In this document: positions 39,771-55,583 of the stretch, piece by piece
How positions within the stretch are numbered: position 1 is the first letter of the stretch
Layout of the letters: each line of letters opens with the position of its first letter
Translations under genes and position numbers: made by a program
Notes under the pieces: model-generated
Seen by the model: the letters and a program-made list of their open reading frames with translations, nothing else
Databases searched by the model: none
Told to the model about the DNA's origin: nothing
Assembly: GCA_964399035.1 (NCBI GenBank)
Contig: CAYNPH010000037.1
Location: 4,681-68,680, forward strand
Source of the DNA: an uncultured Desulfurococcaceae archaeon
GTDB taxonomy: Archaea; Thermoproteota; Thermoprotei_A; Sulfolobales; NBVN01
Direction: 5' to 3'
DNA: 64,000 nucleotides

Positions 39771-40697
39771 TTACACGCCTAGCACTTCCTTGATTAGGGC
39801 TGCCCTCACGAACATTCCGTTTCTTGCTTGCTCGAAGTACCTTGCCTGCGGCAACTCATCCACGCTGGGGTCGAGTTCCCATACCCTTGGTAGTGGGTGC
39901 ATTATGACTGGTATGTGCTTGAATTTCTTGAGGTAGGCTGCGTCTATCTTGTAGCTTCCTTTGAGCCTCTCATACTCTGCTGGGTCCTTGAAGCGCTCCT
40001 TCTGTAGCCTCGTGACGTAGAGGACGTCTAGCTTCTCGATGACCTCTGAGAGGTCATTGACTAGGTGGTACTCGACCTTGCCTTCAATGTTCTTGAGCAC
40101 TTCCTCCCTTATCTGGAGGGCCTGCGGGGCTATGTAGTATATCGTTACGTCCTTGAACTTCGAGAGCGCGTATGATAGGCTGCTTGGCGTCCTGCCGTAC
40201 TTTAGGTCACCCATTATGCCCACGGTTAACCCGTCTATTCTCCCGAACTCCCTCCACATGGTGTAGACGTCTAGGAGAGCTTGGGTTGGGTGCTCGTGCG
40301 GGCCGTCGCCAGCGTTGATTATCGGCGCCCTAATCATTGGGGCTATCTGCTCTGGGAAGCCTGGCTTGCTCTGCCTCAGGACTATTACGTCGGGGTCGTA
40401 CCCGTCAATTATTCTAAGGGTGTCGACGTCAGTCTCTCCTTTAGCGAGGCTTGACCTGCTCACGTCGAAGTCAATTACCCTACCACCGAGCTTAACCATG
40501 GCGAACGTGAAGCTCAGCTTCGTCCTGGTGCTGGGTTCTAGGAACACCGTAGCCATTATCTTGCCCCTAGCGTAGTCGAGAATACCTTTCTCCCTGATCT
40601 CCTCGCGGAGCCTCTCAGCTAGGTTGAATAGCCTGAGTAGGTCCTCGCGAGTGAATTGAAGTGCGGATATTATGTCGTGACCTTTTAACGTGCCCAC
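39771..40697 (-). CDS. pyrB: Aspartate carbamoyltransferase catalytic subunit
   Basis: FLEPSTRT, SLAKGET, HEHPTQALLD, GDLKYGRT, TRLQKER, MHPLPR: carbamoyl-phosphate and aspartate residues all present. Confidence 0.93.
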   Translation of the reverse strand: MGTLKGHDIISALQFTREDLLRLFNLAERLREEIREKGILDYARGKIMATVFLEPSTRTKLSFTFAMVKLGGRVIDFDVSRSSLAKGETDVDTLRIIDGYDPDVIVLRQSKPGFPEQIAPMIRAPIINAGDGPHEHPTQALLDVYTMWREFGRIDGLTVGIMGDLKYGRTPSSLSYALSKFKDVTIYYIAPQALQIREEVLKNIEGKVEYHLVNDLSEVIEKLDVLYVTRLQKERFKDPAEYERLKGSYKIDAAYLKKFKHIPVIMHPLPRVWELDPSVDELPQARYFEQARNGMFVRAALIKEVLGV

Positions 40698-40784
40698 TGC
40701 CTCACACCTCCTGATCGGGTTCAGCTCCTCTTTTGGAAGGGACCCGAATACAGGTTTTGTCTTGAAAAATAAATTTTACCTGAT

Positions 40785-41276
40785 TCACGCTTTACCGCCA
40801 CTAATCTTTTCCGCCGCACGCTTAATTGCCTTAATGATGTTCACGTAGCCCGTACACCTGCAGAGATTACCCCTCACGTACTCCCTAATCATCTCCTCAC
40901 TCGGATTCCTTATCTCCTCGAGGAGCCTCTTAGCAACCAGTATGAAGCCCGGCGTGCAGTAACCACACTGAATCGCCCCCTCCTCTATGAAGGCCTCCTG
41001 CACAGGGTGCAGCTTACCGTCCTTAGCCAAGCCCTCAACGGTGGTTACCTCCCTACCATCTACCTCGACGGCCAGCGTAAGGCATGAGAGCACGGGCTCA
41101 CCGTCCAGTAGCACGGTGCAGGCACCGCACTCACCTATGCCGCACCCGTACTTGGGGCTGAGCACGCCTAGCCTGTCCCTTAACACGTTTATCAGTAACT
41201 CGTTGTCCTTAACCTCAATGCTTACGGGGCGCCCGTTCAGCTTGAAGTTAATTAACCTCGTGCCCACCGCGATCAC
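40785..41276 (-). CDS. Xanthine-dehydrogenase-family 2Fe-2S subunit (operon A)
   Basis: GCGIGECGACT..C, QCGYCTPG, NLCRCTGY. Confidence 0.95.
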   Translation of the reverse strand: MIAVGTRLINFKLNGRPVSIEVKDNELLINVLRDRLGVLSPKYGCGIGECGACTVLLDGEPVLSCLTLAVEVDGREVTTVEGLAKDGKLHPVQEAFIEEGAIQCGYCTPGFILVAKRLLEEIRNPSEEMIREYVRGNLCRCTGYVNIIKAIKRAAEKISGGKA

Positions 41277-42196
41277 CTCCCGAGCCTCTCCATAGCCTTC
41301 TTCAGTGCGTCAACAAGGATGACGCCTGAGACCTCCCTCCTGTACTCAGCGGTTGATCGTATGTCCGTTATTGGCTTCACCTCCGTCCTCACTATCTTGG
41401 CTGCCTCCCACATGACGTCCTCCGTGAGTTCCTTGCCCTTCAGGAACTCCTCGGTCTTGTACGCCCTTATCGGTGTTGGGGCTACCGACCCTAACGCCAC
41501 CTTAACGTCCTCCACGACACCGTCACTCATTCTTAGTGCGACAGCTATGTTTACCTTCGCCAGGTCCATCGCGACCCTAGCTATCTTTATGAACGCCGAG
41601 CCCGTGGGCTTAACGGGCTTAGGTATCCTCACCTCAACTAGGAGTTCGTTGCGTGCCATCACGGTCTTGCCGGGGCCGGTGAAGAACTCCGTTATCGGGA
41701 CTACCCTCCTGCCGTTGGGGCCAGCGATAACTACCTCCGCCTCGAAGACCAGTAGCGGTGGAGCGGTGTCCGCTGCTGGAGACGCGTTACATAAGTTACC
41801 GCCTATGGTTCCCATGTTCCTTATCTGCACTCCAGCCATTGACCTAACGGCCTCGTAAAGCGCCGTGAATAATTCCTTAATGATGCTGGACTTCTCTAGG
41901 GCCCTTAGCTTCGTTGCTGCCCCTATGGCTACGTGGTCCCCGCGGTCCTCGACGTAGTTGAGTTCCTTGATCCTGTTTATGCTGATTAGGTACTTGGGTC
42001 TGAGCACGCCCTGCTTCATCCTCACTAGGAGGTCCGTGCCTCCCGCCAGCACCTTGGCTTCCTCGCCGTACTTGCTGAGCAGTTCGATTGCTTCCTCAAT
42101 GGTTCTCGGTGCTAGGTACTTGAACTCGGGGAGTATGTGTGTGTTGGCTTTGTTCGGGTCTAGCTTGGGTCCGGGTGACTTGAGCACCTTACTCAC
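41273..42196 (-). CDS. Xanthine-dehydrogenase-family FAD subunit (operon A)
   Basis: AGGTDL, RNMGTIGGNLCNASPAAD, DIRSTAEYR. Confidence 0.95.
   Translation of the reverse strand: MSKVLKSPGPKLDPNKANTHILPEFKYLAPRTIEEAIELLSKYGEEAKVLAGGTDLLVRMKQGVLRPKYLISINRIKELNYVEDRGDHVAIGAATKLRALEKSSIIKELFTALYEAVRSMAGVQIRNMGTIGGNLCNASPAADTAPPLLVFEAEVVIAGPNGRRVVPITEFFTGPGKTVMARNELLVEVRIPKPVKPTGSAFIKIARVAMDLAKVNIAVALRMSDGVVEDVKVALGSVAPTPIRAYKTEEFLKGKELTEDVMWEAAKIVRTEVKPITDIRSTAEYRREVSGVILVDALKKAMERLGR
41906..41971 (-). repeat. 66-nt tract, inverted near-identical copy (65/66) of 47774-47839
   Basis: Reverse complement reads atcaaggaactcaactacgtcgaggaccgcggggaccacgtagccataggggcagcaacgaagcta. Confidence 0.9.
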
Positions 42197-44570
42197 CCCC
42201 TTCCTTCTCCTTAAGGGCTTTGAGGATCTTTTCAGGTGTTATGGGTAGTTCGTAGAACCTCACCCCTAACGCGTTGTAGATGGCGTTGGCGACGGCGCCG
42301 GCGACAGGGTTCAGCGCTGACTCTCCTAAGCCCTTAGCGCCGTAAGGCCCTGTGGGCTCGTAGGTCGAGGCGAATATCACCTGGAAGTTCTCTAGGCTCG
42401 GCATGTCCTGAGCCGTCAGTATCTTGTAGTCAGTTATGTACCCCCTACACGCTAACTCGCCTGTTCTGGGGTCGTAGGGCGTGTCCTCAAGTACGGTCAT
42501 GCCCCAGCCCTGCGCGAAGCCGCCGTGCAGCTGCCCGGCAGCTAGGTCCGGGTTTACGACGGTGCCTACGTCGGCACCCGCAACGACCCTCACGGGCCTG
42601 ACTCTGCCCGTCCACGTGTCGACCTCGACCTCAACGAAGTATACGGTGTACGCTGGCGGTGAGTTGGTTGCTCTGTAGGAAACGACCGCCGCTATCGAGC
42701 CCCAGTTCCTCTGCCACGCCTCCCTAGCGACCTCACCCACCGTTATCTTCTTGTCCGGCATCCCCTCAACGTAGATAACTCCCTGCCCTAACTTCTCGTC
42801 AGGCTTGATGGTGAGTGCCTCCGGGTTGACCACGTCACCTAATAGCCTGACCGCGTACTCCAGTAACTTCTTCTTAACTATCTGTGCTGCGCGCCTCGCG
42901 GCCTCACCGCCCACGTAAGTGCCTCTCGAGGCGTGGGTGCAGACGTCGTAGACTGTTGTCTTCGTGTCTGCCCACACGATGTTGACTTTGTCGAGCGGTA
43001 CGCCCAGTTCCTCGGCGATTATCTTTGCGTGGGCCTCTAAGGTACCGCCTCCATGGTCCTGTAGCGCCGTTATGTAGTCGACGCTGCCGTCCTCATTCAC
43101 CTTCAGAATGCAGCCTGTGTAGTCGATGACCTCGCCGGAGATCTTACCGCCGGCACCCGAGGTGTGGAAGCCCCTGCCCATACCTATGCCGCGCCTATAC
43201 CTGCCCTTCTGTTCGCCGGGCTTCGGCCTCTTACTCCACCCTATGAGTTCCGCGCCCTTCCTCATTAACTCAGGTACGCCATCACTCTTCACTATGGACT
43301 TAACGGTGGGTCCTTGACCCCAGAACAAGTCGCCCCTACCGACGTAGTTCTTGAGCCTGAACTCGATGGGGTCGATACCTAGGGCCTCAGCCAGCTCGTC
43401 AATTATGGTTTCCACTGCCCACGTTATCTGCGGGTTGCCGTACCCTCTGAAGGCACAGGACGGCACCTTATTCGTGTATACCGCCACTCCCCTATACCTA
43501 ATATTCTTCCACTTGTATAGGGAGACAAACCAGCCTAGCAGGCACCCTAGCAACGGGTACGCCTGGATCTGATGCCCGCCTATGTCCATCACGTTCTCCA
43601 GCTCGCCAGCAATGATCGTGCCGTCCTTCTTGGCCGCGACCTTGAGCCTGAAGTACATCTGGTACGCGCAGTGGTCCATCATGTCCTCTTCACGGGTCAG
43701 CGCTATCTTGACGGGCCTCCCCGCCTTCAGGGCGAGCGCTACCGCCACTAACGTCACTAGGTTGGTCTGAATGCTTGAGCCGAAGGACCCGCCTATGGGT
43801 AGCTTAACGACGTTTATCTTGCTCTCAGGTATGTCGAAGACCTGCGAAATCAATATCCTAGTGTTATGGATTGTTTGGGTGGTTGTCCATACGGTCACCC
43901 CTCCGTCGGGCTCCGGCCTAGCCACGGCTACCTTGGGCTCTAACTGCATGTGGTACCTCCTGTTAGTCCTGAATTCCCTCTCAATCACGACGTCGGCTTC
44001 CCTGAAGGCTTTCTCGATGTCGCCTTCGTCGTAGTTCAGCGTGCACGCTACGTTATTCTTAACCTCAACCTCCTTACTACCAAATAATATTCTATCATGT
44101 ATTTTGGGAGCGCCCTCCTTACGGGCCTCGAAGGGATCTAGGACGTGCGGGAGAACCTCCCACTCAACCTTAATAGCTTCTAACGCCTTCTGCGCTAGCT
44201 CCTCGGTCTCGGCCGCGACGGCCGCCACGTACTCACCGACGTATTTGGGGTGGTCGGTGAGGACTTCCCAGTCCTTGTAGTTCACCCTGTCCACGCTGAC
44301 GAGCCTAATGTTGAACTTCTTCTTTGGGACGTCCTTGAACGTTATTACGACAGCCCCGAGCTTCTCTGCCTCGCTGGTGTCTATGCTCTTGACGCGGGCG
44401 TGTGGGTAAGGACTCTTCAGGATCCTCCCGTAAAGCATTCCCGGCAGGTTAATGTCGTACGCGTACAGCGCCTTCCCAGTTACCTTAGCCACGCCGTCCT
44501 TCCTAGGGGTCTTCTTACCTATGTACCTAAGCTCCGTAACCTCAGAAGAACAGCTGGGCAATGATACCAC
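42189..44570 (-). CDS. Xanthine-dehydrogenase-family molybdopterin-binding subunit (operon A)
   Basis: KVTGKALY, RSPYPHA-like KSPYPHA, GGSFG, AFRGYGNPQ, DPIEFRLKN, HASRGT, GQLHGG, GAKGLGE (catalytic Glu). Confidence 0.95.
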   Translation of the reverse strand: MVSLPSCSSEVTELRYIGKKTPRKDGVAKVTGKALYAYDINLPGMLYGRILKSPYPHARVKSIDTSEAEKLGAVVITFKDVPKKKFNIRLVSVDRVNYKDWEVLTDHPKYVGEYVAAVAAETEELAQKALEAIKVEWEVLPHVLDPFEARKEGAPKIHDRILFGSKEVEVKNNVACTLNYDEGDIEKAFREADVVIEREFRTNRRYHMQLEPKVAVARPEPDGGVTVWTTTQTIHNTRILISQVFDIPESKINVVKLPIGGSFGSSIQTNLVTLVAVALALKAGRPVKIALTREEDMMDHCAYQMYFRLKVAAKKDGTIIAGELENVMDIGGHQIQAYPLLGCLLGWFVSLYKWKNIRYRGVAVYTNKVPSCAFRGYGNPQITWAVETIIDELAEALGIDPIEFRLKNYVGRGDLFWGQGPTVKSIVKSDGVPELMRKGAELIGWSKRPKPGEQKGRYRRGIGMGRGFHTSGAGGKISGEVIDYTGCILKVNEDGSVDYITALQDHGGGTLEAHAKIIAEELGVPLDKVNIVWADTKTTVYDVCTHASRGTYVGGEAARRAAQIVKKKLLEYAVRLLGDVVNPEALTIKPDEKLGQGVIYVEGMPDKKITVGEVAREAWQRNWGSIAAVVSYRATNSPPAYTVYFVEVEVDTWTGRVRPVRVVAGADVGTVVNPDLAAGQLHGGFAQGWGMTVLEDTPYDPRTGELACRGYITDYKILTAQDMPSLENFQVIFASTYEPTGPYGAKGLGESALNPVAGAVANAIYNALGVRFYELPITPEKILKALKEKEGGE

Positions 44571-44700
44571 ACTAAAACATTTTTTGAGAGAGCAAAAAAC
44601 CTTTTACCTTAAATGAGGGCATCAACGTGTGATTAATTCGTTGACTCACGCGTAATAAGCTCCGATAACCTTGTTTCGGGGTTTAAAAAGAAAACTAAGA

Positions 44701-45009
44701 CTAATCAAACTTAACCTCACCCTCACGGGCCCTCGGCCCGTAGTCTGGGGCGAGGCCTAGGTCCCCTTCACCCTTCTTAGTAGCCAGTAGGTAGAGCCTT
44801 CCCTCAATGACGGTGGTGCCCAGCAGTACGTAGCCCTCCTTACCCAGTTCATTAACTACGTGTTGAATCCTAACCGGGGCGAAGGGATACTCGTACACCG
44901 CGACGTCCTCCGGCCGCACGCCCCGCTCCTCGGCTAGGGAGTTCACCTCCTCAATTAAGGCCTCCCTCAAGGCTTGATTGTTGAGTTCCTCAATGGTAAC
45001 GCGCTTCAT
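44701..45009 (-). CDS. Hypothetical protein (102 aa) upstream of XDH-family operon A
   Basis: ATG-started ORF with genome-typical codon use; no family recognised. Confidence 0.6.
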   Translation of the reverse strand: MKRVTIEELNNQALREALIEEVNSLAEERGVRPEDVAVYEYPFAPVRIQHVVNELGKEGYVLLGTTVIEGRLYLLATKKGEGDLGLAPDYGPRAREGEVKFD

Positions 45010-45244
45010 TCTTGGCGCCGTCCCTAATTAGGGATTAGGGGTTAAAGGCTGTTGGTTTAACTTTGTTCAAACAAGTCAGGGTTTTACATCCTCTGGTTTG
45101 TAATTACTAATAATTACACTGATTACGCGGGTGTTTAGGTACTAAATAGTCTATAATGTGTTGTTAAATATTTTATGATTGCTAAAAACTTATTTTGGAG
45201 AAGCTTTAAACTAACTCGTGTATGATAGCGCCAGGTGAAGCGAT

Positions 45245-47587
45245 ATGGTCTTAATAGAAGACCCATACACCTTAATTAGCAAGTGGTTGCATGCCAAGGA
45301 ATTCCTGATCGTCGGCAAGGGGATTGCCAGGGCTGACGCGCTTGATAAGGCCTTAGGAACGGCTAAGTTCGTAGAGGACTACTTCCAGGAAGGGATGTTA
45401 TTCGTTAAGCAGGTTCTGAGCACGGAGCCCCACGCCAAGATACTTAGGGTTAGGGATGAGGAAGCCCTCAAGGTTCCTAAGGTGGTTAAGGTATTCACAG
45501 CGAAGGACATCCCCGGCGAGAACCAGGTAGGGTACGCCCTACCCGACCAGCCCCTCATAGCTGAGGGTAAGGTCAGGTACCACGGCGAGCTCGTTGCTCT
45601 GGTGGCTGCCGAGGACATTGACGCGGCATTACGTGCAGCTGAACTCGTTAAGGTCGACTACGATCCCCTGCCCTACGTCCTAGACCCGCTTGAGGCGCTT
45701 GAGCGTAAGGATGTCTTAGTGCATGAGGAGGTTGGGAGTAACATAGCTTTCAGGACAAAGGTTCGCAAGGGCAACATTGAGGAGGGCTTCAGCAAAGCGG
45801 ACGTGATCGTGGAGAACGAGTACAGGACGCATCACCAGGACCACGTGTACCTGGAGACTGAGGGCGCGCTGGCGATCCCGGGCTTAGACGGTAGGTTAAC
45901 CGTGGTGACGGCGGCCCAGTACCCGCACCTAGCTCAGTCAATAATAGCTAGGGTGCTCGGCGTACCGGCATCCAACATTAAGGTGGTCGTGCCCTTCATG
46001 GGCGGGGGCTTCGGAGGCAAGGACGATGAAGGCCCGCTGACGGCGGCTAAGGCTGCCCTAGTAGCTCACCTAACGGGCAGGCCTGCCTTCATACTCTACA
46101 CGCGTGAGGAGTCCTTAAGAATGCACCCGAAGAGGGAGGCAACGATAATCAAGTACAAGTCCGGAGCAACTGAGGACGGTAAGCTCACAGCCATAGACGT
46201 CAAGATAATCCACGACACTGGCGCGTACGCGAACAGAGGCCCATTCATCCTATGGAGGGCCACCGTACACGCGTCAGGGCCTTACGAGGTTCCGCACGCT
46301 AGGGTGGAGGGCTACTGTGTGTACACGAACAAGGTGTATCAGGGATCCTTCAGAGGCTTCGGCAACCCGTCAGTGCAGTTCGCTGCCGAGATGCAGATGA
46401 ATGAGCTGGCTAAGAAGCTCGGGATGGATCCGGTGGAGTTCAGGCTCAAGAACATGTTGAGGCCAGGCTCAAGAACGATAACTAACCAGCTGCTCGAGGA
46501 GTCCGTGGGTATCGCGGAAGCTGTCGAGAAGCTTGCTGAGAAGGTCAACTGGGCTAAGAGGAAGGCTGAGTGTGAGTCGTTCAAGGGCAGGTACAGGCGC
46601 GGCATAGGGATAGGTGTGGCGTGGCACGGAATAAGCACCAGCAGGGGGGTGCCTGACTGGTCGAACGCGTACGTGAAGATAGACAAGGACGGCTCAGTAA
46701 CGATGTTCACGGGCATAGTGGAGATGGGTCAGGGATCACCGAACTCATCACACAGGCAGATAGTGGCTGAGATACTCGGCGCGCCACTAGAGAAGGTCAA
46801 GGTAGTGTTCGGCACGAGCGACGCGCCGGACGCGGGAGCGACGCACGCGTCAAGAGGTACGAGCATAGGCGCGATAGGCGTGCTCGTGGCTGCCGCGAAA
46901 GTTAGGGAGAGGCTGAACAAGCTGGCCGCCGAGCTACTGGGCTGCAAGCCGGAGGACGTCGAGATCAAGGGAGGCGTGGTGAGGGCTAAGGGCGTTGAGG
47001 GCAAGGAGCTGAGCTGGGACGAGCTAATCAAGCAGGCATACGCACGCGGCGTCGACCTATCAGCGACGGGCTACTTCTTCCTGCCCAAGGGCAAATTCAA
47101 TGACGAGTTAGGGCAGGGGCAGGCGTACCCAGCCTTCAGCTACGTCGCCATGATCGCTGAGGTCGAGGTCGACACGTGGACAGGTAAGGTACGGGTGCTT
47201 AGGATCTGGCCCGCACTAGCTGCTGGCAGGATAATTAACCCGCAGCAGGTTGAGGGTCAGATAGAGGGTGCGGCGGTTCAGGGAATGGGTTACGTGCTGA
47301 TGGAGCAGTTCGTGTTCGACGAGAAGGGCAGGATACTGAACGCGGACATGACCGACTACGTGGTACCCACGGCGCTCGACATACCGGAGATAGAGAAGCC
47401 GGTGTACGTCGAGGACCTATTCAAGTACGGGCCCTTCGGCGCTAAGGGCGTCGGCGAGATGGCGCTGATACCGGCGCCCGCAGCGATAGCCGGTGCAGTA
47501 TCGCATGCGCTAGGGAAGCCAATAACTAAGCTACCCCTAACACCGGAGGCGGTTTACTTCGAATTAAGGAAAGGAGGTAGCACGTGA
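45245..47587 (+). CDS. Xanthine-dehydrogenase-family molybdopterin-binding subunit (operon B)
   Basis: KALGTAKF, GGGFGGK, SFRGFGNP, DPVEFRLKN, EMGQG, HASRGT, GQIEG, GAKGVGE. Confidence 0.95.
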   Translation: MVLIEDPYTLISKWLHAKEFLIVGKGIARADALDKALGTAKFVEDYFQEGMLFVKQVLSTEPHAKILRVRDEEALKVPKVVKVFTAKDIPGENQVGYALPDQPLIAEGKVRYHGELVALVAAEDIDAALRAAELVKVDYDPLPYVLDPLEALERKDVLVHEEVGSNIAFRTKVRKGNIEEGFSKADVIVENEYRTHHQDHVYLETEGALAIPGLDGRLTVVTAAQYPHLAQSIIARVLGVPASNIKVVVPFMGGGFGGKDDEGPLTAAKAALVAHLTGRPAFILYTREESLRMHPKREATIIKYKSGATEDGKLTAIDVKIIHDTGAYANRGPFILWRATVHASGPYEVPHARVEGYCVYTNKVYQGSFRGFGNPSVQFAAEMQMNELAKKLGMDPVEFRLKNMLRPGSRTITNQLLEESVGIAEAVEKLAEKVNWAKRKAECESFKGRYRRGIGIGVAWHGISTSRGVPDWSNAYVKIDKDGSVTMFTGIVEMGQGSPNSSHRQIVAEILGAPLEKVKVVFGTSDAPDAGATHASRGTSIGAIGVLVAAAKVRERLNKLAAELLGCKPEDVEIKGGVVRAKGVEGKELSWDELIKQAYARGVDLSATGYFFLPKGKFNDELGQGQAYPAFSYVAMIAEVEVDTWTGKVRVLRIWPALAAGRIINPQQVEGQIEGAAVQGMGYVLMEQFVFDEKGRILNADMTDYVVPTALDIPEIEKPVYVEDLFKYGPFGAKGVGEMALIPAPAAIAGAVSHALGKPITKLPLTPEAVYFELRKGGST

Positions 47588-47602: not shown

Positions 47603-48478
47603 ATGTTCTACAGGATACCCGAGATAAACTACTTCCGCGCCTCAACACTGGAGGAAGCACTGGAGCTAATCAGCAAGCTAGAAAGCGTTAAGGTATTGGC
47701 TGGAGGCTCAGACCTACTGATAGACCTGAAGATCAGGAGGTACGAGGTGAAGAACGTAGTAGACATTTCAGGTATCAAGGAACTCAACTACGTCGAGGAC
47801 CGCGGGGACCACGTAGTCATAGGGGCAGCAACGAAGCTACAGGAAATCGTCGAGTCACCCATCATAGCGGCCAAGGCCCCCGTGCTCGCGGAGGCCGTGA
47901 ACGAGATGGCGTCATGGCAGGTAAGGAACGTCGCCACCATAGGCGGTAACATATGTAACGCGTCACCAGCCGCGGACACCGCACCACCACTACTGGTGCT
48001 GAACGCTAGGCTACGCCTAGTTAGCCTGGGGGGTGAGCGCGAGGTACCGATAACGGAGTTCTTCCTAGGACCCAGGAAGACCGTGCTAAGGAAGGGTGAG
48101 TTACTGAAGGAGATAGTGGTGCCCTACGAGCGCGGTGCCGGAGCGTCATTCATTAAGTTAGGGAGGAGAAACGCCTTCACGCTATCGGTGGTGGCGGTAG
48201 CTACCCTAGTCAAGGTGAGGAACGGAATCTTCGACGACGTTAGGGTAGCGCTAAACTCCGTAGCACCTAAGCCCGTAAGGGCGGCGAGTGTGGAGAAGTT
48301 CCTGAAGAGCAGGGAGATAAGCATGAGCGCTATCGAGGAGGGCGCTAAGCGCGTACTACAGGACATATCACCGATTAGCGACGTGCGCGCATCCGCCGAG
48401 TACAGGAAGGAGATGTCGGTGGTGCTAACAAAGGAATCCCTCCTAAGATCCCTCGAGAGAGCGGGGGTTAAGCTGTAA
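47603..48478 (+). CDS. Xanthine-dehydrogenase-family FAD subunit (operon B)
   Basis: AGGSDL, RNVATIGGNICNASPAAD, DVRASAEYR. Confidence 0.95.
   Translation: MFYRIPEINYFRASTLEEALELISKLESVKVLAGGSDLLIDLKIRRYEVKNVVDISGIKELNYVEDRGDHVVIGAATKLQEIVESPIIAAKAPVLAEAVNEMASWQVRNVATIGGNICNASPAADTAPPLLVLNARLRLVSLGGEREVPITEFFLGPRKTVLRKGELLKEIVVPYERGAGASFIKLGRRNAFTLSVVAVATLVKVRNGIFDDVRVALNSVAPKPVRAASVEKFLKSREISMSAIEEGAKRVLQDISPISDVRASAEYRKEMSVVLTKESLLRSLERAGVKL
47774..47839 (+). repeat. 66-nt tract, inverted near-identical copy (65/66) of 41906-41971
   Basis: atcaaggaactcaactacgtcgaggaccgcggggaccacgtagtcataggggcagcaacgaagcta; one T/C difference. Confidence 0.9.
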
Positions 48479-48489: not shown

Positions 48490-48957
48490 GTGGTGAAGGT
48501 CTCATTCATACTTAACGGGGAACCCGTAACCGTGGATGTTAAGCCCAACGAAATACTCCTAGACACCCTAAGGCTAAAGCTAAACATAAAGAGCGTTAAG
48601 AGGGGCTGTGAACGCGCCGAGTGCGGTGCGTGCACGGTGCTCGTGGACGGGAAGCCAACGTACTCCTGCAACCTACTGACAGCGCAGGTCGAGGGCAAGG
48701 AAGTAACGACGCTAGAGGGCTTAAGGGATGACCCCATCGTGAAGGAGCTAACGAGTAAGTTCGTGGAGCACGGCGCCATCCAGTGCGGCTTCTGCACGCC
48801 TGGATTCATAATAACGGCGTACGCGCTGCTGAAGTCAGGCAAGGAACTAACGCCAGAGAACGTGAAGAAGATGCTTGAGGGCAACATCTGCAGGTGCACG
48901 GGCTACAAGAAGATCATTGAGGCAGTCACGGCGGCTGCTGAGGCGCTTAAGAAGTAA
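48490..48957 (+). CDS. Xanthine-dehydrogenase-family 2Fe-2S subunit (operon B)
   Basis: GCERAECGACT..C, QCGFCTPG, NICRCTGY. Confidence 0.95.
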   Translation: MVKVSFILNGEPVTVDVKPNEILLDTLRLKLNIKSVKRGCERAECGACTVLVDGKPTYSCNLLTAQVEGKEVTTLEGLRDDPIVKELTSKFVEHGAIQCGFCTPGFIITAYALLKSGKELTPENVKKMLEGNICRCTGYKKIIEAVTAAAEALKK

Positions 48958-49038: not shown

Positions 49039-50397
49039 ATGGCCGGAGGCAACATATTAATTCGCGGCGGAACCCTGATACTCCCTCATCACGAACCATT
49101 CAAGGCGGACATTAAGATCCTGGATGGGAAGGTTGTCGCCATAGGCGCGTCACTCAGTAAGGAAGGTGTTGATGAAGTCATAGATGCTACGGGAATGTAC
49201 GTGCTCCCAGGCGTGGTGGACGAGCACGTACACATGCGTGAACCAGGGCTAACGTACAAGGACGACTTCACCCACGGGACCTCCGGCGCGGCCGTCGCCG
49301 GCGTAACCACCGTGCTCGAGATGCCCAACACTAAGCCGCCCGTGGAGAGCGCCTCCATACTGAGGCAGAAAGCTGAGTTACTGAGTAGTAAGGCGTACGT
49401 GGACTTCGGCCTCTATGGAGTCATACATAATGCGAACGTCCATGAGTTCGAGGACATCGTAGCGGAAGGGGCCGTCGGGTTTAAGGTGTTCTTAGGCCCC
49501 ACCACCGGGAACATACCGCCCCCGGACGATGGTTCACTCTACGAAGCCCTAACCAAGTCAGCCAAGCTGGGTGTGCCGCTAGCGTTCCACGCGGAGAATG
49601 CCGACCTGGTGAAGTACTTCACCGAGAAGGTCAAGGCGTCCGGCAGGGACGACCCAGCAGCGCACGAGGCCGCAAGGCCCCCGATATGTGAGGAGGAGTC
49701 GATAAACAAGCTAATACTCCTATCCAGGAGAACCGGCGGGAGGGTACACATAGTCCACATGGCGGCTAAGGAAGGTGTCGAGCTACTTAGGGTTGCGAGG
49801 GCTAGAGGCCTGAACGTTACGGGTGAAACCTGCCCCCATTACCTACTACTGAACTCCAACGATTACCTCAAGTACGGGACAGCGATCAAGGTGAACCCAC
49901 CGATAAGGGGTAAGGAACACCAGGAAGCACTATGGAAGGCCGTGCTAGACGGAACCATAAGCACCCTAGGCTCGGATCACGCCCCACACGCAGAACACGA
50001 GAAACGCGGTAACGTGTGGGAATGCGCGGCTGGCTTCACAGGCGTGCAAACGTTCCTCCCGCTAATGATCCACCAGGCCCTAACAGGCAAGCTACCCCTG
50101 CAGAAGATACCTGAGTTAATGAGTGAAGCGCCAGCAAAGCTCTTCGGGATATGGCCCAGGAAGGGAGCCCTAATGGTGGGGTCGGACGGGGACGTAGTGA
50201 TAGTTGACCCGAACGGGGAAACAGCAATCACTAGGGAGTGGCTGAGGGCTAAGTACCCGATAAGCCCCTTCATCGGGTGGAGACTTAAGGGAGCAATCAA
50301 GTACACCATACTACGCGGAACGATCATAGCTAAAGACTACGAGCTAGTCGTAGATAAGCCCATCGGTGAGTGGGTCAAGCCCCTGAGGAAGCCCTAA
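49039..50397 (+). CDS. Cyclic amidohydrolase, dihydroorotase (type I)/allantoinase family
   Basis: PGVVDEHVHMREPG, EMPNT, GFKVF, FHAE, HIVH, ETCPHY, KVNPP, SDHAPH. The HxHxR and MPN residues are the dihydroorotase-type substrate residues. Confidence 0.85.
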   Translation: MAGGNILIRGGTLILPHHEPFKADIKILDGKVVAIGASLSKEGVDEVIDATGMYVLPGVVDEHVHMREPGLTYKDDFTHGTSGAAVAGVTTVLEMPNTKPPVESASILRQKAELLSSKAYVDFGLYGVIHNANVHEFEDIVAEGAVGFKVFLGPTTGNIPPPDDGSLYEALTKSAKLGVPLAFHAENADLVKYFTEKVKASGRDDPAAHEAARPPICEEESINKLILLSRRTGGRVHIVHMAAKEGVELLRVARARGLNVTGETCPHYLLLNSNDYLKYGTAIKVNPPIRGKEHQEALWKAVLDGTISTLGSDHAPHAEHEKRGNVWECAAGFTGVQTFLPLMIHQALTGKLPLQKIPELMSEAPAKLFGIWPRKGALMVGSDGDVVIVDPNGETAITREWLRAKYPISPFIGWRLKGAIKYTILRGTIIAKDYELVVDKPIGEWVKPLRKP

Positions 50398-50702
50398 CGT
50401 TAATCATGGTTATTTACAAAGGCCAGAAAGTTATACACGTCAAACTTACTCTAAATAATTTTTGTCAACTTAAGCATAATTATAAATAAAATTCAAAAAG
50501 TAGTAATTAAGTAATGACATCCCACCTAAAACCCATGAATTCTTATCATCCATCACCGAGAACCCGATATAAATGCTTTACCTATTAATGTAATCAATTA
50601 CGGCTTCATTCTCGTGCCCACCTAAAAATAAATTGACGTGATTAACGAAAAATCAGAAAAATTTATTTCTTTCAACAAGACACACTTACCCGTGGTGTTG
50701 CC

Positions 50703-52097
50703 TTGAGATTAGTCTCAAGAAAAGCCATATCAAAAACTGCATCTGCGGCCATAATTGTAATAATAATAATTGCTATAATAGCGGGAGGGCTGGCTTGGTG
50801 GCAGACCCAACAGAAACCACAAACCACTACCTCAAGCCCCACTACCTCCACTACTCAAACCTCCAGCACTTCTGCCACGGCAACTAAGCCCAAGATCAGC
50901 GTGATTAAGATCGGCTTAATAGAGCCACTCACCGGAAGGCACGCGGTCTTCGGCATCGAGGCTAAGGAAGCCGCAGAGCTAATTGTGAACGTAATTAACA
51001 ATGAGTTAGGAGGGATTAAGTCCCTCGGCGGCGCCAAGATCCAGCTAGTGGTTCAGGACGCTGGCGAGACCCCCGACGATGCTAGGCTTGCCGCCGAGAA
51101 GCTAATCACTCAGGAGCACCCAGTGATAGTTATCGGTGCCTACATTAGTAGGCTAACCGCAGCTGTTGCTGAGGTCACCGAGAAGAACCACGTGATCCTC
51201 TTCATGGACGGCCTCGTCGACTCACTAACGCAGCAGGGCTGGAAGTACGTCTTCAGGGTAGCCCCCAAGGCAAGCGCCCACGGTAAGTCCGCCGTCGACT
51301 TCATACTGGACATGGCTAAGAAGAAGGGCCTTAAGGTCAAGACAGCTGTCGTGCTGAACGAGGACTCCATCTTCGGCACCTACACCGCTGAGGGCGCCGT
51401 GCTCGAACTAACCAAGAACGGCGTTAGGGTGTTAGACCACATAACGTACCCCTACACGATAACGGACTTCAGCTCAATAATCAACAAGATCAAGGCAGAT
51501 AATCCCGACATCATAATATCCGTGCCGTACTTCCATGACGGCGTGCTCTTCGCCAAAGCCATCCAAGCCGCTAACATCCACCCGATGTTCATAGCTGGTG
51601 CAGGAGCCTGTGGCTACACCGACCCAGACTCCATTAAGGCGGCTGGTAAGGCAGTGCTTTACTACACCAACACCTACAGCTACAACCCGTACAGGCAGAC
51701 CGAGTGGAATAAGAAGATCGTGAAGATGTTCGAGGACAAGTACCACAAGCTACCCACCGAGGCTGCCGGCATTATCTTCTACTCAATGATGACTATTTAC
51801 GAGGCCCTCGAGAAGGCTGGCCAGATGTACCCGAATGACCCGCTTAACCCAGATAACCTAAGGAAGGTTCTACTATCCCTAGACCTAACTGACAATAATA
51901 GCATAGCCGCCCAGCTATACCCGACAGGCCACATTAAGTTCGCCCCCAACGGCGACAACATCTACGCCGGCACAGCCGTCCTGCAGGTGCAGATGATAAA
52001 CGGTAAGGAGACCCCAGTCCTAGTGTGGCCTGAGCCACAGCCAGGTGTGGAGCCAGTCTTCCCGAGACCCGACTGGCAGGGCTCAAGCGGTGGGTAG
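50703..52097 (+). CDS. Liv-type (branched-chain amino acid family) ABC substrate-binding protein
   Basis: N-terminal TM and Thr linker, IKIGLIEPLTG, INNELGGIKSLGGAKIQLVVQD, class I SBP layout. Confidence 0.9.
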   Translation: MRLVSRKAISKTASAAIIVIIIIAIIAGGLAWWQTQQKPQTTTSSPTTSTTQTSSTSATATKPKISVIKIGLIEPLTGRHAVFGIEAKEAAELIVNVINNELGGIKSLGGAKIQLVVQDAGETPDDARLAAEKLITQEHPVIVIGAYISRLTAAVAEVTEKNHVILFMDGLVDSLTQQGWKYVFRVAPKASAHGKSAVDFILDMAKKKGLKVKTAVVLNEDSIFGTYTAEGAVLELTKNGVRVLDHITYPYTITDFSSIINKIKADNPDIIISVPYFHDGVLFAKAIQAANIHPMFIAGAGACGYTDPDSIKAAGKAVLYYTNTYSYNPYRQTEWNKKIVKMFEDKYHKLPTEAAGIIFYSMMTIYEALEKAGQMYPNDPLNPDNLRKVLLSLDLTDNNSIAAQLYPTGHIKFAPNGDNIYAGTAVLQVQMINGKETPVLVWPEPQPGVEPVFPRPDWQGSSGG

Positions 52098-52110
52098 GCT
52101 AACCTTAAAA

Positions 52111-52124
52111 TATTTTTGTTTTTG
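52111..52124 (+). terminator. T-rich tract after the SBP gene (candidate archaeal intrinsic terminator/attenuator)
   Basis: tatttttgtttttg about 15 nt after the stop codon. Confidence 0.4.
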
Positions 52125-52258
52125 AACTGTAAAGTCAATAAAAATTGCTTGAATCCCGCCGTGTGCGGGCTGAATAACTACGTTCGCACGTAACCCGTGT
52201 GCGGTAAACGATGTGCGGCGTGACCCACGCGAAGGTAAGGGTGATGGGTGGGTAAGAA

Positions 52259-53128
52259 ATGATCGACCCGATAATAGTGGTGGCAAACATAATAGATGGA
52301 ATACTAATGGGCCTGCTCTACGCTCTTGTGGCCCTTGGTTTATCACTGATATTCGGCTTAATGGACATAATTAACTTCGCCCACGGGGACTTCGTCATGA
52401 TTAGCGCGTACTTAGCGTGGATATTAGCGATGAACTTCATGGTTGACCCCTCAGTAACAGCATTCGTAACGGTTCCGCTGTTCTTCGTTATCGGCCTAGC
52501 GATCTACAAGGTAATAATAGAGCCAATACTCGGTGCCGAGCCCCTAATCCAGATAGCGGTGACGGTGGGTCTGGGCTTCGTGCTCCAGAACATAGCCCTA
52601 GCGGTGTTCCATGCCGAGCCCAGGTCGTACCCGGCACCAGCGCTTAACTTCGGCATTAACATAGGCCCAATAACGCTTGTCGCGGCCAAGCTCGTGGCCG
52701 CCGCAGTCAGCCTAGTGTCTCTGTTCCTGATACACTACATGCTGACTAAGACGAAGTTCGGCCTAGCGATCAGGGCGACCTCAGCGAACAGGATGGTGGC
52801 CCCACTCATGGGCATTAACGTCGGTAAGGTGTACGCGGTGGTCTTCGGCCTCGGCATAGCGCTCACAGCTCTCGGCGCGGCCCTCTACATGACGTGGGGT
52901 CAGGTCGACCCGTACCTGGGTGCGTCCTTCAGCTTACTGTCATGGGTCATAGTAGCTATGGGTGGGTTAGGCGGCGTCATAGGGGTACTGGCATCTGGTC
53001 TAATAGTTGGTGTTCTCGAGGCGCTTGGAAGCACCTTCATAACGCCGAGCGCTAGGATGGCCGTAGTGTACTTGGCGTTCTTCCTGCTGCTGTGGTTCAG
53101 GCCGAGAGGGCTCTTCGCTAGGAGGTGA
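52259..53128 (+). CDS. livH: Liv-type ABC permease (LivH)
   Basis: ALGLSLIFGLMDIINFAHGDF, TKFGLAIRA, MGGLG, RPRGLF. Confidence 0.93.
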   Translation: MIDPIIVVANIIDGILMGLLYALVALGLSLIFGLMDIINFAHGDFVMISAYLAWILAMNFMVDPSVTAFVTVPLFFVIGLAIYKVIIEPILGAEPLIQIAVTVGLGFVLQNIALAVFHAEPRSYPAPALNFGINIGPITLVAAKLVAAAVSLVSLFLIHYMLTKTKFGLAIRATSANRMVAPLMGINVGKVYAVVFGLGIALTALGAALYMTWGQVDPYLGASFSLLSWVIVAMGGLGGVIGVLASGLIVGVLEALGSTFITPSARMAVVYLAFFLLLWFRPRGLFARR

Positions 53129-54117
53129 GGGCGATGATGGGTGCCGAGTTCAAGAAGTACTTCATAACACTGGCAGTACTCACCGTGGTGCTGGCGTTAG
53201 TCCCCTTCGCCCTAGGCTTTAATCAGTACTACATACTGCTCGCCGCGACCTCACTGATATTCGCGGTGTTCGTGGTCGCGTGGAACATCATAGGCGGGTA
53301 CGCTGGCCAGCTGGACCTAGCGCCGATAGCGTACGTGGGCATAGGCGGTATAGTGGCTGCGCAGCTCCTCAAGTACTACGGGATAACGCCCTGGGTAGGG
53401 ATGTTCATCGGTGCTGGGGCGTCAATGCTGCTCGCGGCCGCGATAGGGTACCCGACGTTCAGGTTCGGGATTAAGGAAGTGTGGTACGCGTTGCTGACCG
53501 CCTCCCTAGTGGTGATACTCAACAACATAGCGCACCTGCCCCAGTTCCTGGGATCCCTCGACCACTACTTACCGGCTAAGACCGGGTGGTACTACCTGAT
53601 ATTCACTGACTACCAGAACCTCTACTACGTGATACTGGCGGTGCTAGTTGCGACAATAGCGATTAACCTGAAGATCAGCAACTCGAAGACAGGGTATTAC
53701 TTAAGGGCTATTAGGGAGGACGAGCTGGCTGCCGAGGCCCTAGGGATTGACGTGAGGAAGTACAAGCTAAAGGCGCTAATGACGTACGCAGGCATAATGG
53801 GGTTCACGGGGTACCTCTACATAGTGTTGCAGGGCACGTACTCTTACCACACTTTCGACTCACCGACCTCATTAACGATAGCGATCATGGGCATCATAGG
53901 TGGTTTAGGGTCGGTGGCCGGTGCGTTCACGTCAGCGATATTCCTGAAGACCGTGGAGGAGTACTTAAGGAGCACGATAGGGGCGATGATTCCCGGCCTC
54001 TACCTACTGATCTACGGGATCCTACTCATAGTGGTCGGCATATTCAAGCCCGAAGGCATCGCCGCCCTCTTCAACTGGGTGAAGAAGAAAATCGGGTTTG
54101 ACAGGAGGGGTGCTTAG
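53125..54117 (+). CDS. livM: Liv-type ABC permease (LivM)
   Basis: WNIIGGYAGQLDL, SKTGYYLRAIREDELAAEALGI, IGGLGS, KPEGI. Confidence 0.92.
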   Translation: MRAMMGAEFKKYFITLAVLTVVLALVPFALGFNQYYILLAATSLIFAVFVVAWNIIGGYAGQLDLAPIAYVGIGGIVAAQLLKYYGITPWVGMFIGAGASMLLAAAIGYPTFRFGIKEVWYALLTASLVVILNNIAHLPQFLGSLDHYLPAKTGWYYLIFTDYQNLYYVILAVLVATIAINLKISNSKTGYYLRAIREDELAAEALGIDVRKYKLKALMTYAGIMGFTGYLYIVLQGTYSYHTFDSPTSLTIAIMGIIGGLGSVAGAFTSAIFLKTVEEYLRSTIGAMIPGLYLLIYGILLIVVGIFKPEGIAALFNWVKKKIGFDRRGA

Positions 54118-54119
54118 CC

Positions 54120-54851
54120 ATGCCCGACGCAATACTTCAGGTAAGGAACGTTGTTAAGAGGTTCGGAGGGATAATCGCGGTAAACAACATTAGCTTCGAC
54201 GTGCGTGAAGGCGAGATCATGGGGCTCATAGGCCCTAACGGCGCCGGTAAGACGACCCTCTTCAACTGCATAACCGGTATATACACGCCTGAGGAAGGCA
54301 AGGTATACTTCATGGGTGAGGACATAACAGGGTTACCGCCCCACAAAATAGCGCTTAAGGGCATAGCTAGGACATGGCAGAAGACAAGGCCCTTCAAGAA
54401 AATGACCGTGCTGGAGGCAGTCACGGTGGGCGCGCTACTAAGAACAAGTAACGTCGACAAAGCCATGAGGAAGGCCGAGGAAGTCCTTAAATTCATCGGG
54501 TTCCCTGAAGAGAAGATAAACGCCTTAGGCAAGGACATAACCCTCATGGATCACAAGATGGTTGACCTAGCGAGGGCCATAGCGACAGAGCCCAAACTAC
54601 TCCTGCTGGACGAGGTCGCCGCCGGCCTAAGGCCCCACGAGATGGATAGGCTTGCGGAGGTTCTGAGGAAGATAAACTCTGAGAAAGGAATAACGATGAT
54701 AGTGGTGGAGCACGTGATGAGGTTCGTGATGGGGCTGAGCGAAAGGATCGTGGTGATGCATGAAGGACAGAAGATTGCTGAGGGCCGCCCGGAGGAAATA
54801 GCGAACAACCCGAAGGTAATTGAAGCCTACCTAGGCACGAAGCCCGTGTGA
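54120..54851 (+). CDS. livG: Liv-type ABC ATPase (LivG)
   Basis: KRFGG, GPNGAGKTTLFN, LLLDEVAAG, VEHVM, VIEAYLG. Confidence 0.93.
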   Translation: MPDAILQVRNVVKRFGGIIAVNNISFDVREGEIMGLIGPNGAGKTTLFNCITGIYTPEEGKVYFMGEDITGLPPHKIALKGIARTWQKTRPFKKMTVLEAVTVGALLRTSNVDKAMRKAEEVLKFIGFPEEKINALGKDITLMDHKMVDLARAIATEPKLLLLDEVAAGLRPHEMDRLAEVLRKINSEKGITMIVVEHVMRFVMGLSERIVVMHEGQKIAEGRPEEIANNPKVIEAYLGTKPV

Positions 54852-54866
54852 GGGAGGTGGTCACAC

Positions 54867-55583
54867 GTGAGCGCATCCATGCTCGAGCTGAAAGGGATTC
54901 ACGCAGGCTACGGGGAGTTCCGCGTGCTCCACGACGTCAACATGCGTGTGGAGAAGGGCGAGATAGTCGCGTTGATAGGGCCCAACGGTGCGGGCAAGAC
55001 GACAACGCTCAGAACCGTGCTCGGAATGACGACCCTCTACGAGGGTAAGGTGCTCTTCAAGGGCGAAGACATAACTAAGGTACCGACACACAAGAGGGTT
55101 GAGAAAGGCATAGCGATGGTGCCGGAAGGCAGGGGAATATTCACACCACTAACGGTGTATGAGAACCTCCTCGCCGGCGCCTACACGAAGAGGGCCGAGG
55201 AGAAGCTGCAGGACTCCCTAGAATTCGTCTTCACCCTCTTCCCAAAGCTAAAGGAAAGGAGGAACCAAATAGCGGGGACGCTGTCCGGCGGCGAGGCCCA
55301 GATGCTCGCCATAGCAAGGGCACTCATGTCGAGACCGGAGCTACTACTCCTCGACGAGCCGAGCTTGGGCCTAGCTCCTAAGATCGTGCTTGAGGTATTC
55401 GACGTTATCAGGAAGCTAAGGGAGGAGGGAGTAACGATACTTATAGTGGAGCAGCACGTGAAGAACTCCCTAGAGACCGCCGACAGGGCGTACGTGATGG
55501 AGACGGGCAGGATAGTGCTTGAGGGCGAGGCCAGGTCACTACTCAAGGATGAGAGGCTGAAGAAGGCATACCTAGTGATATAG
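54867..55583 (+). CDS. livF: Liv-type ABC ATPase (LivF)
   Basis: GPNGAGKTT, VPEGRGIF, LSGGEAQM, LLDEPSLGLAP, VEQ. Confidence 0.95.
   Translation: MSASMLELKGIHAGYGEFRVLHDVNMRVEKGEIVALIGPNGAGKTTTLRTVLGMTTLYEGKVLFKGEDITKVPTHKRVEKGIAMVPEGRGIFTPLTVYENLLAGAYTKRAEEKLQDSLEFVFTLFPKLKERRNQIAGTLSGGEAQMLAIARALMSRPELLLLDEPSLGLAPKIVLEVFDVIRKLREEGVTILIVEQHVKNSLETADRAYVMETGRIVLEGEARSLLKDERLKKAYLVI

Follow-up and report, generated by a model that had tools for sequence, protein, structure and literature searches.

Two molybdenum hydroxylase operons conserved beside pyrB and a likely dihydroorotase gene in Desulfurococcaceae

We analysed a 64-kb window of DNA from an uncultured Desulfurococcaceae archaeon, with attention to the stretch from 39771 to 55583. 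Two complete operons of the xanthine dehydrogenase (XDH) family, each with molybdenum (Mo), flavin adenine dinucleotide (FAD) and iron-sulfur (FeS) subunits, diverge in this stretch. Arm A lies on the minus strand and continues into pyrB, the gene for the catalytic chain of aspartate carbamoyltransferase (ATCase). Arm B lies on the plus strand and continues into the gene for a cyclic amidohydrolase, most likely a dihydroorotase (DHOase, pyrC). The linkage of arms A and B with pyrC and pyrB is real and conserved across Desulfurococcaceae. Each single gene is of a familiar kind. The recurrent linkage of a true ATCase, in archaea also of a dihydroorotase, with an XDH-family Mo enzyme, partly at the operon level, is apparently undescribed: we found no description of an XDH-pyrB link in the literature searched.

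The genes were checked through an open reading frame (ORF) listing and Pfam and NCBIfam scans. Relatives came from scanning genomes with PyrB and metagenomes with the large subunit of arm A, and from looking up the contigs of amidohydrolase homologues. An earlier reading of this DNA, made from the sequence only (hereafter the sequence-only reading), had described the divergent operons, with pyrB on arm A and the amidohydrolase and a Liv-type importer on arm B. All of these genes were recovered in that layout.

Conservation of the cluster in archaea and bacteria

The Desulfurococcaceae loci present five gene orders, with PyrB identities to the window protein down to 60%. In the first, arm A runs into pyrB in one direction and arm B runs into pyrC in the other (the window, L004, L028 and L046). 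In the second, arm B and pyrC point one way, and arm A, running into pyrB, points the other (L006, L024, L036 and L039). The third again has pyrB after arm A, and pyrC leads through two small genes to arm B (L047, complete genome CP072660.1). In the fourth, arms B and A share one direction, and pyrC and pyrB take the opposite one (L048). The fifth belongs to Desulfurococcus mucosus DSM 2162 (L044). There, arm B diverges from the amidohydrolase orthologue (pyrC) and pyrB, which are 14 bp apart, and arm A is outside the region viewed. Since the arrangement recurs in many genomes, it is not due to chance. The PyrB proteins of three Desulfurococcales metagenome-assembled genomes (MAGs) from hydrothermal samples are 97-98% identical to the window PyrB. 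Conservation of the linkage, in five orders in Desulfurococcaceae and for arm A with pyrB in Spirochaetaceae, removes the refutation by non-conservation that the sequence-only reading had named for itself.

The linkage is not universal. The pyrB gene stands alone, with unrelated neighbours and without pyrI, in L007 (80% PyrB identity) and in L008-L011 (68-70%). Thermocladium has the classical pyrB-pyrI-pyrE-pyrD order. Its PyrE, used as a query, gave 18 hits, none of them in Desulfurococcaceae, which, given the word filter of the search, is no sign that the gene is missing there. PyrI is present in Thermocladium (L012) and in Lentimicrobiaceae (L019). It was found neither in the window nor within 10 kb in any Desulfurococcales or spirochaete locus, and could be encoded elsewhere in those genomes. 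The 10 kb around the gene clusters gave no PyrD in any of the loci and no carbamate kinase in the Desulfurococcaceae loci read. In the window, annotation of all 64 kb with Pfam and NCBIfam, together with tblastn, revealed no pyrI, pyrD, pyrE, carA, carB, pyrK or carbamate kinase. This upholds the earlier statement that pyrI, pyrD, pyrE and carAB are not present. An aspartate-aminotransferase-like gene adjoins pyrB in L006; in L030 and L036 this place is taken by an ORF of about 400 amino acids.

An A-type Mo-FAD-FeS-pyrB operon is present in three spirochaete contigs, one of them the complete genome CP070696.1; its pyrB and FeS genes overlap by 4 bp. Two of the three also have another, different XDH operon in divergent orientation. 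Homologues of the arm A large subunit in bacteria are about 57-62% identical to the window protein. The spirochaete large subunits are 57-59% identical to the archaeal ones; the PyrB proteins share only 45% and group with bacterial PyrBs. In the tree of the A subunits, a bacterial clade without pyr genes lies between the archaeal and the spirochaete clades. Because the spirochaete PyrB is of the bacterial type and an A clade lacking pyrB intervenes, the A-pyrB adjacency was apparently assembled independently in Desulfurococcaceae and Spirochaetaceae, at least twice, a strong argument that the link is functional.

Four bacterial-looking metagenome contigs (L029, L031, L033 and L038) hold no pyr gene; after an A-type operon (58-62% identical) they have MocA and XdhC, and then a B-like operon in convergent orientation. 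The moaA gene and a molybdate-type ABC (ATP-binding cassette) transporter lie near the A and B pair in these contigs.

Other relatives of PyrB and of the amidohydrolase stand in different company. Locus L052 (2972-10927) presents a Liv-type importer with an embedded reductive-dehalogenase/QueG-like Fe-S protein, then a carbamate kinase, and 34 bp later pyrB. The kinase passes TIGR00746. The PyrB, a 74%-identical relative within the spirochaete PyrB family, keeps the genuine ATCase motifs. L052 is a candidate for a catabolic ATCase module, or for an anabolic one independent of carbamoyl phosphate synthetase (CPS). In L053, the genes before a PyrB of the spirochaete family encode a TRZ/ATZ aminohydrolase and a DHOase-like protein, the latter frameshifted; there is a 4-bp overlap. 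In the Nitrososphaerota MAG L049 (8833-20190), a carbamate kinase is divergent from a DHOase orthologue. Further along are a PrpD-like protein, a Liv-type ABC transporter, a peptidase-C45-like protein, a second DHOase paralogue (41% identical) and a binding protein. This stretch looks like a ureide-utilisation cluster.

Identity of the encoded enzymes

The window PyrB (39771-40697, minus strand, 308 amino acids) passes both ATCase equivalog models: TIGR00670 with 338.4 bits against a cut-off of 236.95, and NF002032 with 302.3 against 263. Its top PDB match is the Pyrococcus abyssi ATCase 1ML4 (301 bits), and the Methanocaldococcus ATCase is also among the closest. Barba et al. 2013 (PMC4016543) described pseudo-ATCases that adjoin xanthine dehydrogenase, allantoinase and carbamate kinase. 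Their hallmarks are a lost RxQ (AIA, GxS or VxP) and an altered HPLP (HPLA, H[ST]LP, HSLP). We applied the motif test of that work (S[TR]RT, HP[ST]Q, HP[LG]P and the aspartate-binding RxQ; Table 1, PMC4016543). The window protein presents STRT(K), HPTQ, HPLP and RLQ, all unchanged in 10 aligned relatives, among them the XDH-linked proteins of spirochaetes. As the window, archaeal-relative and spirochaete PyrBs all keep STRT, HPTQ, HPLP and RxQ, they are genuine ATCases by this test. A pseudo-ATCase or ureidoglycine carbamoyltransferase was rejected on the retention of both RLQ and HPLP. YgeW was likewise rejected: its models give 39.4 and 36.7 bits against cut-offs of 453 and 500, and identity to E. 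coli YgeW is 22%. The earlier call of a canonical PyrB rather than YgeW agrees with these cut-offs and with the full set of ATCase motifs. The STRTR sequence reads STRTK in all Desulfurococcales PyrBs examined, XDH-linked or not; it is STRTR in Thermocladium and in bacteria.

In a neighbour-joining tree of PyrB, the stand-alone copies (L007-L011) and an aigarchaeal copy nest among the XDH-linked ones. This nesting indicates one orthologous lineage whose location varies.

The amidohydrolase (49039-50397, plus strand) is harder to name from model scores. It passes TIGR00857, a subfamily_domain model, with 343 bits against 279. It also narrowly passes the allantoinase model TIGR03178 (374.7 against 357.85, a margin of 17 bits) and stays below every DHOase equivalog model, for example PRK09060 (353 against 482). 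Its best PDB match is the Arthrobacter L-hydantoinase 1GKR (302 bits), followed by allantoinases and D-hydantoinases; solved DHOases reach at most 209 bits.

The motifs favour a dihydroorotase. We used the DHOase set HxHxR(E/D)PG, MPNTxP and (S/T)DHAPHx4K, whose three positions we take to be substrate-binding and to carry the catalytic aspartate. The window protein reads HVHMREPG, MPNTKPP and GSDHAPHaeheK (GSDHAPHAEHEK at the third motif). The orthologues of D. mucosus and of an aigarchaeote have them too, as does the pyrC of Alicyclobacillus pyrBC-carAB operons. The aligned allantoinase 3HM7 reads HVHFNEPGRTEWEG (HVHFNEPGRTxWEG) and SDHSP, where the window protein has REPGLTYKDD and SDHAPH. 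The aligned L-hydantoinase 1GKR reads HVHIIDMDL, MPITFPP and SDHGGH at the same positions. Because the substrate-binding motifs match pyrC and not allantoinase or L-hydantoinase, we read the enzyme as most likely a dihydroorotase of the carbamylated-lysine type. Action on the isomeric 5-carboxymethylhydantoin may also be compatible with its sequence.

Two other names were considered and rejected. For allantoinase (AllB), PRK06189 and PRK08044 are far under cut-off and the motifs differ from 3HM7. For hydantoinase or dihydropyrimidinase, TIGR02033 gives 335.9 against 393.25 and the motifs differ from 1GKR. The label "dihydroorotase/allantoinase-type" given in the sequence-only reading can be narrowed accordingly: the dihydroorotase signatures (HVHxREPG, MPNTxPP, SDHAPHx4K) are present, and active-site motifs of the allantoinase or hydantoinase type are not. 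In the aigarchaeal locus L050, pyrB and the amidohydrolase orthologue (55% identity) lie about 1 kb apart among housekeeping genes, without XDH. The database names of the orthologues are "allantoinase AllB" (NCBI, via TIGR03178) or "dihydroorotase" (JGI; D. mucosus). Given the motifs and the adjacency to pyrB, the AllB label on Thermoproteota MAG orthologues is probably a systematic misannotation. If so, it affects metabolic reconstructions of Thermoproteota MAGs.

Taken as a pair, the window pyrB and pyrC look like the ordinary ATCase and dihydroorotase of the lineage, not like specialised catabolic paralogues. They resemble canonical pyrB-pyrC and pyrBI systems in the PyrB models and motifs, in the DHOase motifs and in the 14-bp spacing of the D. 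mucosus pyrC-pyrB pair. Unlike those systems, the window holds no pyrI or other pyr gene nearby, and the genes are interleaved with two XDH-family operons. The window DHOase is globally nearer to hydantoinases and allantoinases than to any solved DHOase, and its bridge motif is of the carbamylated-lysine type, not that of the Bacillus-type pyrC.

Arm A consists of the molybdopterin subunit (42189-44570; 793 amino acids; Ald_Xan_dh_C and MoCoBD_1/2), the FAD subunit of the CoxM/XdhB type (41273-42196; FAD_binding_5 and CO_deh_flav_C; only one Cys) and the small 2x[2Fe-2S] subunit (40785-41276; Fer2 and Fer2_2, with both cysteine motifs visible in the translation), all on the minus strand. The Mo and FAD genes overlap by 8 nt, the FAD and FeS genes by 4 nt, and an 87-nt gap precedes pyrB. 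Arm B, on the plus strand, has its molybdopterin subunit at 45245-47587 (780 amino acids), its FAD subunit at 47603-48478 (FAD_binding_5 and CO_deh_flav_C) and its small 2x[2Fe-2S] subunit at 48490-48957 (Fer2_2 and Fer2). An 81-nt gap separates it from the amidohydrolase gene.

The large subunits of the two arms are only 35% identical. This makes them members of two distinct subfamilies rather than products of a recent duplication, in line with the two different Mo enzymes of the sequence-only reading. Both keep the catalytic glutamate and the cofactor-binding domains, and neither reaches any curated (NCBIfam) cut-off. The two arms thus encode complete Mo-FAD-2x[2Fe-2S] enzymes with the catalytic glutamate.

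The pockets differ. We take the residue roles (Glu802, Arg880, Phe914, Phe1009, Glu1261) from the bovine and Rhodobacter capsulatus XDH structures. In arm A, Ile stands in place of Glu802, and the Arg880 position holds Cys in the window and Cys, Val or Thr across relatives; the catalytic Glu is kept. Its best PDB matches are 4-hydroxybenzoyl-CoA reductase (4-HBCR) and CoxL-like proteins. For arm B, the closest NCBIfam models are pucD and XdhA, below cut-off, and the PDB matches include R. capsulatus XDH (315 bits). Arm B keeps Arg310/Arg880 (R338), Phe344/Phe914 and the catalytic Glu (Glu1261). It has Asp at the Glu232/Glu802 position (GGGFGGKDDEG) and Thr at the Phe1009 position, and this pocket is invariant in D. 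mucosus, L047 and L048. Judging by these residues, the arm B pocket is compatible with an oxo-purine or oxo-pyrimidine, and that of arm A is not of such a type, nor of the xanthine type.

Several named enzymes were tried for these subunits and set aside. Xanthine dehydrogenase proper does not fit: arm A has Ile802 and Cys880, arm B has Asp802 and Thr1009, and all XDH models are below cut-off. 4-HBCR is the best PDB match of both large subunits, but the scores (456 and 497) fall under the cut-off of 995. Moreover, the single Cys of the arm A FAD subunit means that the extra [4Fe-4S] loop of 4-HBCR is lacking. The active-site loop of aerobic CO dehydrogenase is AYRCSFR or AYRGAGR; the equivalent reads CAFRGYGNPQ in A and GSFRGFGNPS in B. 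E. coli XdhA is about 31% identical to both arms and has a different pocket.

Oligo-T runs and TATA-like boxes are present in the 87-nt and 81-nt gaps before pyrB and pyrC (AAAATTTATTTTT; AAAATATTTTTAAT), as read by eye, and AAAACTTTTAAT before pyrB is common to L006 and L036. From these elements, pyrB and pyrC probably each have their own promoter in the window.

Downstream of the amidohydrolase gene, after 305 nt, the Liv-type ABC importer (50703-55583, plus strand; Pfam matches) comprises a Peripla_BP_6 binding protein (50703-52097) and livHMGF (52259-55583). The best PDB match of the binding protein is 8WCH, a "probable Leu/Ile/Val-binding protein". The importer adjoins arm B in the window, L024, L028 and L039; it is absent in the close relative L046, in L047 and in L048. 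It is probably an amino-acid importer and a neighbour of arm B rather than a core part. One conserved Liv-type importer accompanying PyrB and DHOase across organisms was considered and rejected: the binding proteins in L049 and L052 are 26% identical or not detectably related. This binder type and this distribution do not support the imported ring of the sequence-only reading.

Readings of the linkage

The window also encodes genes of nucleotide metabolism. One operon on the minus strand consists of purB (797-2140), a gene for a purine phosphoribosyltransferase (PRT; 2137-2751) that most resembles Sulfolobus GpT-1, and guaA (2753-4300); its genes abut or overlap. This predicted purine salvage unit (797-4300) is about 37 kb from the XDH cluster. 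On the plus strand, at 10860-13840, a Metallophos protein of 706 amino acids is followed by an overlapping PNP_UDP_1 nucleoside phosphorylase; the two look like a nucleotide and nucleoside scavenging pair. Oligopeptide transporters are also encoded. A Desulfurococcaceae MAG has been reported as auxotrophic for purines and amino acids, with complete uracil synthesis (PMC11467010).

We tentatively favour a nucleotide-economy module, in which PyrB and PyrC work forward and are co-localised with base-oxidising Mo enzymes in a scavenger. PyrB and PyrC would carry out the first two committed steps of uridine monophosphate synthesis. The organism would scavenge nucleic acids, with the nucleotidase-like Metallophos protein, the nucleoside phosphorylase and the guaA/6-oxopurine-PRT/purB operon, and the Mo enzymes would oxidise the scavenged bases. 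Arm B plausibly converts hypoxanthine-like bases to xanthine, which would feed the PRT/GuaA route to guanosine monophosphate. Since this ATCase has no PyrI regulatory chain nearby, having pyrB and pyrC next to the base-oxidising enzymes would let gene expression link pyrimidine synthesis to the supply of purines. In E. coli, allosteric activation of ATCase by ATP ties pyrimidine synthesis to purine supply. The link would be one of co-regulation or shared physiology, with no shared linear pathway.

This module is consistent with the ATCase identity, the DHOase motifs and the adjacency to pyrB in D. mucosus and the aigarchaeote, the nesting of the PyrBs, the probable separate promoters of pyrB and pyrC, the aspartate-aminotransferase-like neighbour of pyrB in L006, the salvage genes, the arm B pocket, the conserved clustering and the auxotrophy reported in PMC11467010. 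Other observations weigh against it. Co-regulation alone is a weak reason for so persistent an arrangement. The spirochaete pyrB closes the A operon and overlaps the gene before it by 4 bp, and an IclR regulator is encoded upstream, before the A operon in L013 and before the twin XDH cluster in L014; genes of one catabolic pathway are typically arranged in this way. None of the five sampled bacterial PyrB relatives is in a classical pyr operon; the neighbours are XDH (three), carbamate kinase (one), and a TRZ/ATZ aminohydrolase with a DHOase-like gene (one). Finally, arm A is without the xanthine-binding residues and arm B without Phe1009, and neither is a proven purine enzyme.

The catabolic route of the sequence-only reading, which we consider possible but rather unlikely, would use PyrB and PyrC in reverse. 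A scavenged N-heterocycle would be hydroxylated by A, B or both to dihydroorotate or L-5-carboxymethylhydantoin. The amidohydrolase would then give N-carbamoyl-L-aspartate, reverse ATCase would give aspartate and carbamoyl phosphate, and a carbamate kinase encoded elsewhere would yield ATP. Imidazole-4-acetate hydroxylated at C2 and C5 could be an example of the substrate, and the same PyrB/PyrC pair could also serve biosynthesis. The ATCase and dihydroorotase reactions are both reversible, a point in favour of this route. So are the operon-level linkage of A and pyrB in two domains with native PyrBs, apparently assembled independently, the IclR regulators, and the fact that no pyrI adjoins any of the XDH-linked pyrB genes. 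The carbamate kinases beside the PyrB relative in L052 and the DHOase orthologue in L049 point the same way, as does the importer beside arm B in four loci. A review has regarded a catabolic ATCase as conceivable, though unproven (PMC4581275).

Against the catabolic route, no Desulfurococcaceae locus has the kinase nearby, and PyrB and the amidohydrolase look like housekeeping orthologues. We know of no natural substrate that Mo hydroxylation turns into dihydroorotate. The importer is not conserved and its binding protein resembles a Leu/Ile/Val binder. The A and B twins of other bacteria (58-62% identity) carry MocA and XdhC and no pyr gene. A carbamate kinase by PyrB would equally fit an anabolic supply of carbamoyl phosphate.

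Known catabolic systems are similar to the locus in part. The E. coli xdhABC-ygeW-ygeX-ygeY-hyuA-yqeA cluster also has an XDH-family operon near a carbamoyltransferase and a cyclic amidohydrolase. The window differs in its true ATCase and in an amidohydrolase 34% identical to HyuA. It holds no carbamate kinase (YqeA), ygeX/Y, ssnA or XdhC/MocA. A purine cluster of the E. coli type was rejected, as HyuA and YgeW are distant homologues and the kinase and XdhC/MocA are missing. Catabolic modules of a carbamoyltransferase with carbamate kinase (arginine deiminase, agmatine deiminase, oxalurate) follow the logic proposed in the sequence-only reading, and a kinase adjoins the relatives in L052 and L049. 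They differ in that the Desulfurococcaceae clusters lack the kinase, and a catabolic ATCase has never been demonstrated (PMC4581275). In the pseudo-ATCase clusters of Rubrobacter and Nocardioides (PMC4016543), an ATCase-like gene likewise lies by xanthine dehydrogenase and a cyclic amidohydrolase, with carbamate kinase in the cluster. However, the window, relative and spirochaete proteins keep HPLP and RxQ.

Part of the sequence-only reading stands. Its linkage to Mo hydroxylases is conserved and pyrI is absent beside pyrB; the housekeeping look of PyrB and the amidohydrolase and the lack of carbamate kinase in the Desulfurococcaceae clusters speak against its interpretation. The kinase that it suggested looking for is missing from those loci and present beside the relatives of PyrB (L052) and of the amidohydrolase (L049). 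Orotate fermentation in Clostridium oroticum, from orotate through dihydroorotate to carbamoyl-aspartate, with carboxymethylhydantoinase (EC 3.5.2.4) as a side enzyme, offers a partial parallel. There, DHOase works in reverse and the route ends at the carbamoyl-aspartate/aspartate level. It differs in starting with a flavin orotate reductase, not a Mo enzyme, and ureidosuccinase rather than ATCase is reported.

Stated broadly, the metabolic proposal is that one or both Mo hydroxylases yield an intermediate at the level of dihydroorotate, carbamoyl-aspartate or 5-carboxymethylhydantoin from a scavenged N-heterocycle and that the genuine ATCase is phosphorolytic. Even including the variant of a Mo enzyme that substitutes for dihydroorotate dehydrogenase, we find this doubtful. 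If true, it would be the first catabolic ATCase, providing carbamoyl phosphate for ATP or for cells without CPS.

It is improbable that the Mo enzymes act directly in pyrimidine biosynthesis. In strict anaerobes they could stand in for dihydroorotate dehydrogenase or help it; they could bring a scavenged precursor by hydroxylation to the orotate or dihydroorotate level, as the alternative in the sequence-only reading has it; or they could supply a carbamoyl donor without CPS. The cluster does join pyrB and pyrC with redox enzymes, and PyrD, the sole redox step of the pathway, did not turn up within 10 kb of any locus. The clustering is also kept throughout a family whose genomes are small. Arginine catabolism supplies carbamoyl phosphate in Thermococcus lacking CPS (PMC13260591), a precedent for CPS-less hyperthermophiles drawing it from a catabolic route. 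Against this, two different enzymes would need explaining, and the A and B twins occur without pyr genes. No XDH-family enzyme is known to us that desaturates a C-C bond. The complete uracil synthesis of a family member (PMC11467010) implies an ordinary pyrD, and one is expected, as an expectation only, in the spirochaete example with its 4.8-Mb genome.

Equally improbable is the absence of any functional link, with synteny inherited in one archaeal family and reordered through local inversions, and with the spirochaete operon due to coincidence or to a joint transfer long ago: close relatives with pyrB elsewhere (L007, 80% identical; L008-L011) and the apparent own promoters of pyrB and pyrC would suit it, but all four units stay together in five gene orders down to 60% PyrB identity (arm A of D. 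mucosus being outside the view), and the spirochaete A-pyrB operon, with its 4-bp overlap, bacterial-type PyrB and intervening pyrB-less A clade, makes a chance repeat very unlikely.

If the link is metabolic, it would mean either a catabolic ATCase, the first of its kind, or a new way into pyrimidine metabolism, and it would give a function to two conserved orphan Mo-hydroxylase subfamilies. If it is regulatory, as in the nucleotide-economy module, it would show a way to tie a PyrI-less ATCase to purine supply. The question is testable because a cultured organism, D. mucosus DSM 2162, carries the cluster.

Other genes of the window

A small conserved ORF lies between the arms (44701-44970, minus strand; 89 amino acids as called in the source contig). 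It holds the inter-arm position in L004, L006, L024, L028, L035, L036, L039 and L046, with 49-90% identity, and has no Pfam match at E<=0.1. It may have a regulatory or an accessory role. Scans of the window for tRNAs and Rfam families found none.

The molybdenum cofactor synthesis gene moaA (31902-32870, minus strand; Radical_SAM and Mob_synth_C) is 6.9 kb from pyrB; the sequence-only reading had put it at 7 kb. It is divergent from the gene for a radical-SAM protein of 634 amino acids, and a Peripla_BP_2/FecCD/ABC importer comes next. This block (31902-37900) is reshuffled in L004/L023, where moaA is only 2.6 kb from pyrB.

After pyrB, on the same minus strand (38018-39614), there are genes for a cyclophilin-like protein (PF04126) of 267 amino acids and a creatininase-family protein. 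The latter is below all NCBIfam cut-offs and is not ArfB. We do not count the two genes as parts of the locus; they are kept only at the species level (L004/L023) and are absent in L006, L046 and L047. A 50%-identical homologue of the window ORF at 55645-56133 directly follows pyrC in L046. Finally, two Desulfurococcaceae genomes have, close to the cluster, both a CxxCxxCC (PF03692) protein and a protein of the AF_0155 family: at 11372-12542 in L047 and at 14441-15085 and 11342-11791 in L048.

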